Below, in pieces: positions 56,492-57,688 of a stretch of DNA of 64,000 nucleotides. Each line of letters begins with the position of its first letter. The stretch's first letter is position 1. Source of the DNA: Escherichia coli (lineage in GTDB: Bacteria; Pseudomonadota; Gammaproteobacteria; Enterobacterales; Enterobacteriaceae). The position numbers were made by a program, and so were the translations under genes. The notes below the pieces were generated by a model. The model ran no database searches. It saw only the letters and a list, made by a program, of their open reading frames with translations, and was not told the origin of the DNA. The stretch is from NCBI RefSeq assembly GCF_003334765.1, contig NZ_QOWT01000019.1. The stretch is one strand, 5' to 3'.

Positions 56492-57688
56492 ATGAAAACC
56501 TGGATATTTATCTGTATGTCCATAGCAATGTTGCTATGGTTTTTAAGTACGCTAAGACGTAAACCCAGTCAAAAGAAAGGCTGTATTGACGCCATTATAC
56601 CTGCGTATAACGAAGGCCCGTGTCTGGCGCAGTCACTGGATAATCTACTGCGTAACCCTTATTTTTGCCGGGTAATTTGCGTTAACGACGGCTCCACGGA
56701 CAATACCGAAGCGGTCATGGCGGAAGTCAAACGCAAATGGGGCGACCGCTTTGTTGCCGTCACGCAAAAAAATACCGGTAAAGGTGGTGCGCTGATGAAT
56801 GGCCTCAATTACGCCACCTGCGACCAGGTTTTTTTAAGTGATGCCGACACCTATGTTCCGCCCGATCAAGACGGAATGGGCTATATGCTGGCAGAAATTG
56901 AGCGCGGTGCCGATGCCGTAGGCGGCATTCCCTCTACTGCGTTGAAAGGCGCGGGTCTGTTACCGCACATCCGCGCGACCGTAAAGTTGCCGATGATTGT
57001 TATGAAGCGCACGCTACAGCAGCTCCTGGGTGGCGCACCGTTTATTATCAGCGGTGCCTGCGGGATGTTCCGTACTGATGTATTGCGTAAGTTCGGTTTC
57101 TCGGATCGTACTAAAGTCGAAGACCTTGATCTCACCTGGACATTGGTGGCAAACGGCTACCGTATTCGGCAGGCGAATCGCTGCATCGTATACCCACAGG
57201 AATGCAACAGCCCGCGTGAGGAGTGGCGTCGCTGGCGGCGTTGGATTGTGGGATACGCGGTCTGTATGCGCCTGCATAAAAGACTTTTATTTAGCCGCTT
57301 CGGTATCTTCAGTATATTTCCTATGCTGTTGGTTGTGCTTTATGGCGTTGGGATTTATCTCACTACCTGGTTTAATGAATTCATCACCACCGGGCCGCAT
57401 GGAGTGGTGTTGGCAATGTTTCCGCTTATCTGGGTCGGCGTAGTTTGTGTTATTGGTGCTTTTAGCGCCTGGTTTCATCGTTGCTGGTTGTTGGTGCCTT
57501 TAGCGCCGCTTTCCGTTGTGTATGTATTATTAGCTTATGCCATCTGGATTATTTATGGACTTATTGCCTTTTTTACTGGACGCGAACCTCAGCGCGACAA
57601 ACCCACCCGCTATTCCGCACTGGTGGAAGCGTCAACCGCTTATTCCCAACCTTCTGTCACAGGAACTGAAAAACTATCTGAAGCTTAA
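56492..57688 (+). CDS. yaiP: Membrane-bound family-2 glycosyltransferase, synthase-like
   Basis: 398-aa ORF; N-terminal TM helix, GT-A motifs IIPAYNEG, VNDGSTDNT, DxD (SDAD), an R/QxxRW-like stretch (REEWRRWRRW), then several C-terminal TM helices. Confidence 0.85.
   Translation: MKTWIFICMSIAMLLWFLSTLRRKPSQKKGCIDAIIPAYNEGPCLAQSLDNLLRNPYFCRVICVNDGSTDNTEAVMAEVKRKWGDRFVAVTQKNTGKGGALMNGLNYATCDQVFLSDADTYVPPDQDGMGYMLAEIERGADAVGGIPSTALKGAGLLPHIRATVKLPMIVMKRTLQQLLGGAPFIISGACGMFRTDVLRKFGFSDRTKVEDLDLTWTLVANGYRIRQANRCIVYPQECNSPREEWRRWRRWIVGYAVCMRLHKRLLFSRFGIFSIFPMLLVVLYGVGIYLTTWFNEFITTGPHGVVLAMFPLIWVGVVCVIGAFSAWFHRCWLLVPLAPLSVVYVLLAYAIWIIYGLIAFFTGREPQRDKPTRYSALVEASTAYSQPSVTGTEKLSEA

Follow-up and report, generated by a model that had tools for sequence, protein, structure and literature searches.

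A likely start codon for yaiX inside yaiP and the long out-of-frame overlap it would create in Escherichia coli

INTRODUCTION

Where does translation of yaiX begin? In the 64 000-nt stretch of Escherichia coli DNA analysed here (contig NZ_QOWT01000019.1 of assembly GCF_003334765.1, hereafter the window) the gene for the predicted acetyltransferase YaiX follows the glycosyltransferase gene yaiP, and, as a first-pass annotation of the bare letters had noted, the yaiX frame is already open from ATG 57537, upstream of the yaiP stop codon TAA 57686–57688. The overlap, put at about 150 nt in that annotation, can reach 152 nt at most. The annotation offered two ways to read this arrangement: either yaiX is translated by coupling from within yaiP, or it begins at a non-ATG codon further downstream. 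Our comparison of 28 loci argues that yaiX is a functional gene, most likely translated from the second in-frame ATG of its frame, ATG 57555, which lies inside yaiP in the +1 frame and would give a protein of 230 amino acids (aa) and an overlap of 134 nt.

The question has a practical side, as the start of what is essentially one E. coli sequence has been annotated in at least five ways (174, 193, 197, 230 and 236 aa). For strains whose sequence is that of the window RefSeq uses CTG 57666 (193 aa, WP_024183734.1), for another E. coli strain CTG 57654 (197 aa) and, for sequence type 131 (ST131), a GTG equivalent to position 57723 (174 aa; the window reads GTA here); a Salmonella plasmid orthologue is given the long ATG form (229 aa). 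ENA gene calls yield 230 aa (P0001, 1737 member sequences), and the 236-aa form is that of KEGG and of a 2026 overexpression study (PMC13058169). All three RefSeq starts for E. coli cut off a conserved pair of tryptophans. NCBIfam has no model that scores above its cutoff for YaiX and none that spans the first ∼40 residues, a gap that may be the reason for the inconsistent start annotation.

RESULTS

Distant homologues start at a tryptophan pair

A protein search returned 526 YaiX homologues and a genome scan gave 15 loci, seven of them from non-enterobacterial Proteobacteria with a yaiP-like gene upstream; further enterobacterial copies were added via protein look-ups and plasmid tblastn. When the N-termini of the orthologues were aligned, the distant ones (∼50% identity, 205–206 aa) were found to begin MWW(R/S)EL, aligning to H28-W29-W30 of the 236-codon maximal frame in the window. 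In all seven non-enterobacterial loci the yaiX homologue directly follows a gene for a yaiP-like family-2 glycosyltransferase (GT2), starts with an ATG or GTG immediately 5′ of TGG TGG, and has a GAGGT, AAGGT or AGAGA motif 7–8 nt before this start. The Shine–Dalgarno (SD) sequence so formed consists of the Thr-Arg-Tyr codons of the yaiP motif DKPTRY/KPTRY, whose Arg codon is AGG, or AGA in the case of Acinetobacter. The yaiP gene stops 11 nt past the first Trp codon in these loci, resulting in an overlap of 14 nt (ATGTGGTGGnnTGA), and in five of them stop codons interrupt the yaiX frame further upstream. In two loci of the candidate phyla radiation there is no GT2 gene upstream that ends at this point, and their homologue still begins M/V-W-W after a GGA-type motif. 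Since M-W-W is shared by non-enterobacterial Proteobacteria and candidate-phyla-radiation loci, it is the putative ancestral N-terminus of YaiX, and the short coupled junction is the putative ancestral arrangement.

The start of yaiX in the non-enterobacterial Proteobacteria reads AUGUGGUGG or GUGUGGUGG (junction at ∼5040–5095 in each locus), and such starts fall in the AUGUG/GUGUG class treated in PMC9841429. The SD of these loci hinges on an AGG Arg codon in yaiP KPTRY that is otherwise rare.

Enterobacterial-type loci share an ATG further upstream

Thirteen enterobacterial-type loci align without gaps across the junction: the window, E. whittamii, four Citrobacter, Enterobacter sp. PGRG2, an Ignatzschineria metagenome-assembled genome, a divergent second E. 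coli copy (P0050), a metagenomic contig and three IncF plasmid copies. All of them keep the Trp pair, preceded by a codon for His, Pro, Tyr, Arg or Leu and never for Met. The Arg of DKPTRY is encoded by CGN throughout, and with this change from AGG the SD is lost. What the 13 loci do have in common is ATG 57555, which is likewise present in all four Salmonella/Enterobacter-type loci examined. Its distance to the Trp pair downstream is 22 codons, or 21 in one Salmonella/E. bugandensis group, and in yaiP it is formed by the Tyr/His and Gly codons of the motif IYG, TAT or CAT followed by GGA. The Tyr/His codon that creates it ends in T in 13/13 loci; the Tyr codon six codons upstream is TAC in seven and TAT in six.

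Both ATGs had been candidates in the first-pass annotation, and only ATG 57555 withstands this comparison. A start at ATG 57537, which would give the 236-aa form, has in its favour that it is the first ATG past the upstream stop and that E. coli, E. whittamii, one plasmid copy and C. cronae possess it. However, these are only 4 of the 13 loci, the remaining nine lacking it, and in three of the 13 the stretch from 57537 to 57555 contains stop codons; upstream of 57555 the ratio of non-synonymous to synonymous differences (pN/pS, calculated per segment after Nei and Gojobori in the yaiP frame and in the yaiX frame) is ∼0.7–1.0 for the yaiX frame, and the SD score of ATG 57537 is the worst of all candidates (+0.9 kcal/mol). 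We consider initiation at this codon very unlikely.

In the window the Trp-Trp conserved in the family lies 68 nt upstream of the yaiP stop. Past TTG 57564 the next in-frame ATG, GTG or TTG of the yaiX frame is GTG 57807, and a start after the yaiP stop would therefore have to be non-canonical or lie within the β-helix. The yaiP stop itself is found 68 nt past the first Trp codon in most of the 13 loci, with two earlier (C. cronae and the metagenomic copy) and two later; in two Salmonella/Enterobacter groups yaiP stops well before this point. Judging from these alignments, the tail of yaiP is dispensable and variable.

Constraint alternates between the two frames

Across the whole of yaiP the mean pairwise diversity at third codon positions is 0.488 (standard deviation 0.108; 403 alignment columns). 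The lowest 8-codon window of the gene is YGLIAFFT (57554–57577), with a diversity of 0.021, and it coincides with yaiX codons 1–8; the windows beside it are the next lowest, and beyond the overlap region no value falls under ∼0.23. Within the block frozen in this way (Table 1) four four-fold-degenerate yaiP codons (GGA, GCC, ACT and GGA) are fixed in 13/13 loci, whereas comparable codons nearby vary freely. The equivalent yaiP codons of the distant loci show no such freeze, and therefore the freeze accompanies the relocated start.

The pN/pS values alternate along the junction. In the yaiP-only region they are 0.21 for the yaiP frame and 1.01 for the yaiX frame; over yaiX codons 1–9 they become 3.18 and 0.34, over codons 10–22 they return to 0.15 and 1.38, from the Trp pair to CTG 57666 they are 1.71 and 0.39, and from there to the yaiP stop 0.64 and 0.49, respectively. 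Single codons follow the same pattern: yaiX codon 2 is Asp or Glu (via GAC, GAT or GAA), and codon 3 is Leu throughout (via TTA, CTA or TTG) over a yaiP residue that may be L, F, I, P, S or T. This frame-specific selection argues that the yaiX frame is read from ATG 57555. Inside the overlap, purifying selection on the second frame is combined with suppression of synonymous change in the first, as overprinting predicts. YaiX thus appears to be laid out as a short conserved N-terminus (MDLLPFLLD), a free linker over an invariant yaiP motif and a conserved Trp-Trp segment.

The frozen block may reflect the encoded peptide, an open start region or both. We tentatively propose, as a possibility that we hold less probable than its opposite, that MDLLPFLLD is a de novo peptide module of the enterobacterial type, overprinted on yaiP and retained for its own role, such as docking YaiX on the membrane synthase YaiP. 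The frozen sites would then reflect peptide function and not only an open start, and the SD-less start would tie YaiX output to yaiP translation. As regards a DNA-level explanation for the block, a promoter scan of 57300–57800 on both strands found no sigma-70-like site.

The block could also be a shift site. A run of six T (GCC TTT TTT ACT, 57566–57577) is perfectly conserved inside it, yaiX is the +1 frame of yaiP, and tRNA-Phe could re-pair after a +1 slip, so that ribosomes would produce a YaiP-YaiX fusion by +1 frameshifting. However, the invariant ATG and the selection on yaiX codons 1–3 both lie upstream of the T run, no stimulator is evident (an upstream SD is missing, and the A site has neither a rare nor a stop codon), and the distant homologues, which lack the T run, clearly initiate yaiX separately. 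Frameshifting is in our view the least probable of the explanations weighed here and can almost be set aside.

Start codons nearer to the yaiP stop

In the RefSeq models, which resemble the second suggestion of the first-pass annotation, yaiX starts at a non-ATG codon near the yaiP stop (CTG 57666, CTG 57654 or GTG 57723), which terminating yaiP ribosomes could reach, and the frame upstream is untranslated. RefSeq annotation apart, CTG 57666 has some attractions, since it lies within ∼20 nt of the yaiP stop in an unstructured region with an AGGA just upstream (−4.3 kcal/mol) and is replaced by GTG in several plasmid and Citrobacter copies. But this AGGA ends 1 nt before the CTG, too near to serve as an SD, and the codon, which is GTG in six and CTG in four of the 13 loci, is elsewhere ATT, GTA or ATG, with GTA or ATT in two. 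The yaiX frame upstream of CTG 57666 is under purifying selection (pN/pS 0.39, versus 1.71 for yaiP), its Arg, Pro and Leu codons varying only synonymously. Any of these starts would remove an N-terminal Trp-Trp that is conserved across phyla, and AlphaFold2 models residues 23–37 confidently. Moreover, RefSeq is itself inconsistent, with three starts in E. coli and a long ATG form in Salmonella, and for GTG 57723 the window has GTA. Selection and Trp-Trp conservation upstream thus leave a downstream non-ATG start unsupported, and we regard it as improbable.

A further rival is a main start at ATT 57612, three codons before the Trp pair. Its product, MPHWW..., would mimic the ancestral N-terminus, and ATG 57555 would be incidental. 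AUU has a precedent as a start codon in infC. The position is occupied by ATG in Enterobacter PGRG2 and Superficieibacter, a Salmonella/E. bugandensis group has an ATG two codons before the Trp pair, the ATT derives from a yaiP Tyr codon that is TAT in 13/13 loci, and the 5′ edge of the K-12 pseudogene in RefSeq falls here. However, among the 13 loci the codon is ATT in eight, ATA in four and ATG in one, and an SD is missing (+0.4 kcal/mol). The GC-rich 61 nt around it have a minimum free energy (MFE) of −17.5 kcal/mol, which makes them more structured than 83% of windows across the two genes. A main start at this codon would also leave the frozen block and the selection on codons 1–9, 57 nt upstream, unexplained, and we hold it to be as improbable as the non-ATG starts near the yaiP stop.

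Initiation at ATG 57555 would be SD-independent

Neither ATG has a recognizable SD, as had been noted in the first pass: the predicted duplex with the anti-SD is +0.9 kcal/mol at 57537 and −3.1 kcal/mol at 57555, compared to a background over the two genes of −2.4 ± 2.1 kcal/mol and to −7.4 kcal/mol at the start of yaiO. The RNA around ATG 57555 is on the other hand unusually open, as the 61 nt around it have an MFE of −3.9 kcal/mol, placing them among the 2% of windows in the two genes with the least structure, and contain 34% GC. It is well established that E. coli ribosomes can initiate without an SD on unstructured, AU-rich RNA. Ribosomes might accordingly load directly at ATG 57555 without an SD, owing to the AU-richness and near absence of structure of the ∼60 nt around it.

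Termination-reinitiation requires a start within a few nucleotides of the upstream stop. For ATG 57555, with TAA 57686 as much as 131 nt downstream, the classical form of this mechanism is unlikely. The idea of translation coupled from within yaiP consequently finds support in one part and is unlikely in the other: a start inside yaiP agrees with the Trp pair upstream of the yaiP stop and with selection in the yaiX frame, whereas classical coupling does not fit a stop 131 nt downstream.

The sequence TAATG at 57686–57690 was considered as a coupling start and rejected. Its ATG is out of the yaiX frame and opens a 12-codon reading frame only, and E. whittamii has TAATAT.

In the path that these comparisons suggest, yaiX would originally have started beside its two Trp codons, driven by an SD within yaiP and with a 14-nt overlap. 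In the enterobacterial-type lineages the start codon beside the Trp pair would have been lost, the change of Arg AGG to CGN would have destroyed the SD, and the yaiP stop would have shifted downstream, by ∼19 codons in E. coli. Initiation would have relocated 22 codons upstream to the ATG provided by yaiP Tyr-Gly (TAT GGA), adding to YaiX a new N-terminal extension overprinted on the C-terminus of yaiP.

yaiX is present in most E. coli and interrupted in K-12

A remaining explanation is that yaiX of the Enterobacteriaceae is essentially untranslated and decaying, its start and ribosome-binding site gone, and that the overlap is an artefact of reading-frame calling. The loss of the SD and of the ancestral ATG, the interruption of yaiX in K-12 and the minimal expression suggested in PMC13058169 would all be compatible with this. 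However, 4452 of 5426 complete E. coli genomes have a near-complete copy of a 1-kb stretch covering the entire yaiX frame, and the β-helix part of yaiX has a pN/pS of 0.26 in divergent enterobacterial and plasmid copies, so yaiX is maintained. In addition, repair of the K-12 gene results in a clumping phenotype for which yaiP is also required, according to EcoGene (PMC3531124). Decay is therefore highly unlikely, somewhat more so even than a start at ATG 57537.

The first-pass annotation had stated that K-12 yaiX is disrupted by IS2 and that the copy in the window is intact, and this is what we find. In K-12 DH5alpha an IS2 transposase splits two acetyltransferase fragments, and the K-12 match to segment 57300–58300 of the window ends at query base 538. 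Over 55700–57840 the window and DH5alpha differ by one base, at 56366, which is C (CAG, Gln) in the window and T (TAG) in K-12; the 185-aa YaiS of K-12 is therefore a nonsense-truncated form of the 223-aa PIG-L deacetylase. The K-12 cassette has two lesions, the yaiS amber codon and the IS2 in yaiX. The small-protein gene ykiC of K-12 is annotated at ∼56348–56467 on the minus strand, antisense to the 3′ part of yaiS. It mostly covers the stretch of yaiS that the amber codon leaves untranslated in K-12; in the window the yaiS frame is intact. An antisense RNA inside yaiP is mentioned, without a position, in PMC4666370.

YaiX is a predicted left-handed β-helix acyltransferase

By its repeats and predicted fold YaiX is a hexapeptide-repeat left-handed β-helix acyltransferase, for which acyl-CoA-dependent activity is predicted. 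PF00132 (Hexapep), GMPPB_C and related β-helix families are recorded for close homologues, and NCBIfam β-helix models match residues ∼42–217. The best match to a GlmU-type NCBIfam equivalog reaches 129 bits against a cutoff of 292 (TIGR03992) and covers the C-terminal part of the profile only. An AlphaFold2 model built on a 72-sequence alignment has a mean pLDDT (predicted local distance difference test) of 85.9, with values <50 for residues 1–18, ∼76 for 21–30, ∼88 for 31–50 and >95 for the β-helix, which agrees with the Trp-Trp segment belonging to folded YaiX. Among solved structures YaiX comes closest to the C-terminal acetyltransferase domain of Sulfolobus tokodaii ST0452, found both by sequence (E = 8e-23, YaiX residues 62–219) and by Foldseek (E = 1e-11, template-modelling score 0.69, 34% identity). 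The first ∼60 residues, including Trp-Trp, have no counterpart in any solved structure. The substrate of YaiX is stated to be unknown (PMC13058169).

The cassette and its neighbours

In the window yaiX is part of the cassette yaiS-yaiP-yaiX-yaiO, which is flanked by tauA and frmRAB (Table 1). For YaiP the top NCBIfam model is PgaC_IcaA, with a score under its cutoff. The yaiX-yaiO junction is of the conventional coupled type, with TAA 58245–58247, a 1-nt gap and ATG 58249, and the SD of yaiO, GGAG, lies within the 3′ end of yaiX; it thereby contrasts with the yaiP-yaiX junction. In Enterobacter sp. PGRG2 the YaiX homologue has a C-terminal extension of ∼30 residues that makes an 86-nt overlap with the yaiO homologue (3641–3726), a second long overlap within the same cassette.

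Table 1. Features of the yaiP-yaiX junction and the surrounding cassette (positions in the window)
Feature	Position	Strand	Remarks
yaiS	55811–56482	+	PIG-L family deacetylase; first cassette gene; full length, 223 aa
yaiP	56492–57688	+	Family-2 glycosyltransferase resembling PgaC/IcaA; 398 aa; TAA 57686–57688; same span in RefSeq
Maximal yaiX open frame	57537–58247	+	236 codons; closed upstream by TAG 57531–57533; ends with TAA 58245–58247
Frozen block	57545–57581	+	∼10 nt before ATG 57555 plus yaiX codons 1–9 (MDLLPFLLD); AU-rich, unstructured
Proposed yaiX coding sequence	57555–58247	+	230 aa; predicted stand-alone left-handed β-helix acetyltransferase; start proposed from comparison
Out-of-frame overlap of yaiP and yaiX	57555–57688	+	134 nt; yaiX frame is yaiP frame +1
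Variable YaiX linker	57582–57620	+	Codons 10–22; overprinted on the invariant yaiP motif REPxRDKPTRY
ATT, weak rival start	57612–57614	+	Aligns with ATG in some relatives
Trp-Trp motif, TGG TGG	57621–57626	+	68 nt upstream of the yaiP stop; invariant in 13/13 loci
CTG, RefSeq yaiX start	57666–57668	+	WP_024183734.1, 193 aa
IS2 interruption point of K-12 yaiX	∼57837–57838		Approximate; uninterrupted in the window
yaiO	58249–59022	+	Outer-membrane β-barrel; TIGR04390 above cutoff

The cassette yaiS-yaiP-yaiX-yaiO is also carried by IncF plasmids of E. coli and Salmonella, and is therefore mobile. The proteins of these plasmid copies are 54–99% identical to the chromosomal one, and fimbrial or EAL-domain genes often adjoin them. 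E. coli ETEC1706, which is identical to the window over yaiX, has a partial yaiS and a 1-nt deletion in yaiP (equivalent to window position 56829), and its yaiP is annotated as frameshifted; in other strains IS1 and IS3 insertions are present in the cassette. These lesions and insertions suggest that the cassette is frequently inactivated.

DISCUSSION

On the comparative evidence the overlap of yaiP and yaiX is a genuine long one, apparently created by relocation of the start codon and overprinting; what it calls for is a correction of the annotation, and it presents no new kind of system. Several points weigh against a start at ATG 57555. The 13 loci are related and their counts are not independent, for which the contrast with flanking yaiP codons controls only partly, and the protein-level argument depends on few codons. 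Linker codons 10–22 are unconstrained in the yaiX frame, and a constraint at the level of RNA or DNA, instead of the peptide, could be behind the frozen block. SD-led initiation takes a purine-rich complement of the anti-SD 5–10 nt upstream, and the −3.1 kcal/mol at 57555 is within background; the 2026 paper notes the missing SD of yaiX and reads it as minimal expression (PMC13058169). In the supplements of two papers on start-site profiling by ribosome footprints and on N-terminomics no entry for yaiX, yaiP, yaiS or yaiO was found, and they provide no direct evidence of initiation. Four of the five AlphaFold2 models are poor and residues 1–18 have low confidence, making the structure prediction supporting evidence only. 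Finally, position 57612 is always ATT, ATA or ATG beneath a Tyr codon that is TAT in 13/13 loci, and a minor, weak second start near the Trp pair may exist.

ATG 57555 is nonetheless the start that we advise for work on this gene, the site being settled as far as sequence comparison allows. For expression or repair of yaiX the 230-aa form should be used, as the RefSeq forms lack Trp-Trp and the 236-aa form has six extra residues. The proposed start can be removed by one substitution (TAT to TAC) that leaves the YaiP protein unchanged, so that a test would be simple. The locus thus offers a testable long out-of-frame overlap whose path can be traced, beginning with a coupled junction of 14 nt and ending with an overlap of 134 nt and an overprinted N-terminus, and better gene models will aid functional work on a clumping-linked cassette that is found in most E. 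coli and on IncF plasmids.

Compared with known systems, the predicted protein shares its hexapeptide-repeat β-helix with ST0452 and the C-terminal domain of bacterial GlmU. It differs from both in standing alone, without the nucleotidyltransferase half and with an N-terminal segment of its own of ∼60 residues, and in being encoded in an exopolysaccharide-like cassette (PIG-L deacetylase, PgaC-like GT2 and YaiO barrel).

Most bacterial overlaps annotated as longer than ∼60 nt are start-site errors. Unlike most of these, the overlap of yaiP and yaiX is backed by comparative data, and the apparent error lies instead in the shorter RefSeq models. The short stop-start overlaps of translational coupling (ATGA, TAATG) resemble the yaiP-yaiX junction of non-enterobacterial loci, with its 14 nt and an SD in the upstream gene, and equally the yaiX-yaiO junction. 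The E. coli yaiP-yaiX junction is unlike them, its start being 131 nt upstream of the stop and without an SD. Its likeness is to overprinting, in which the synonymous sites of the older gene are suppressed, as they are in yaiP: YaiX residues 1–22 would be encoded in the +1 frame of an older, conserved yaiP segment, with constraint alternating between the frames. With SD-independent initiation on AU-rich RNA the proposed start has in common the missing SD, the low structure and a GC content of 34%. It differs in that the start that we infer for yaiX would be internal to a translated gene and not in a 5′ leader or intergenic region.

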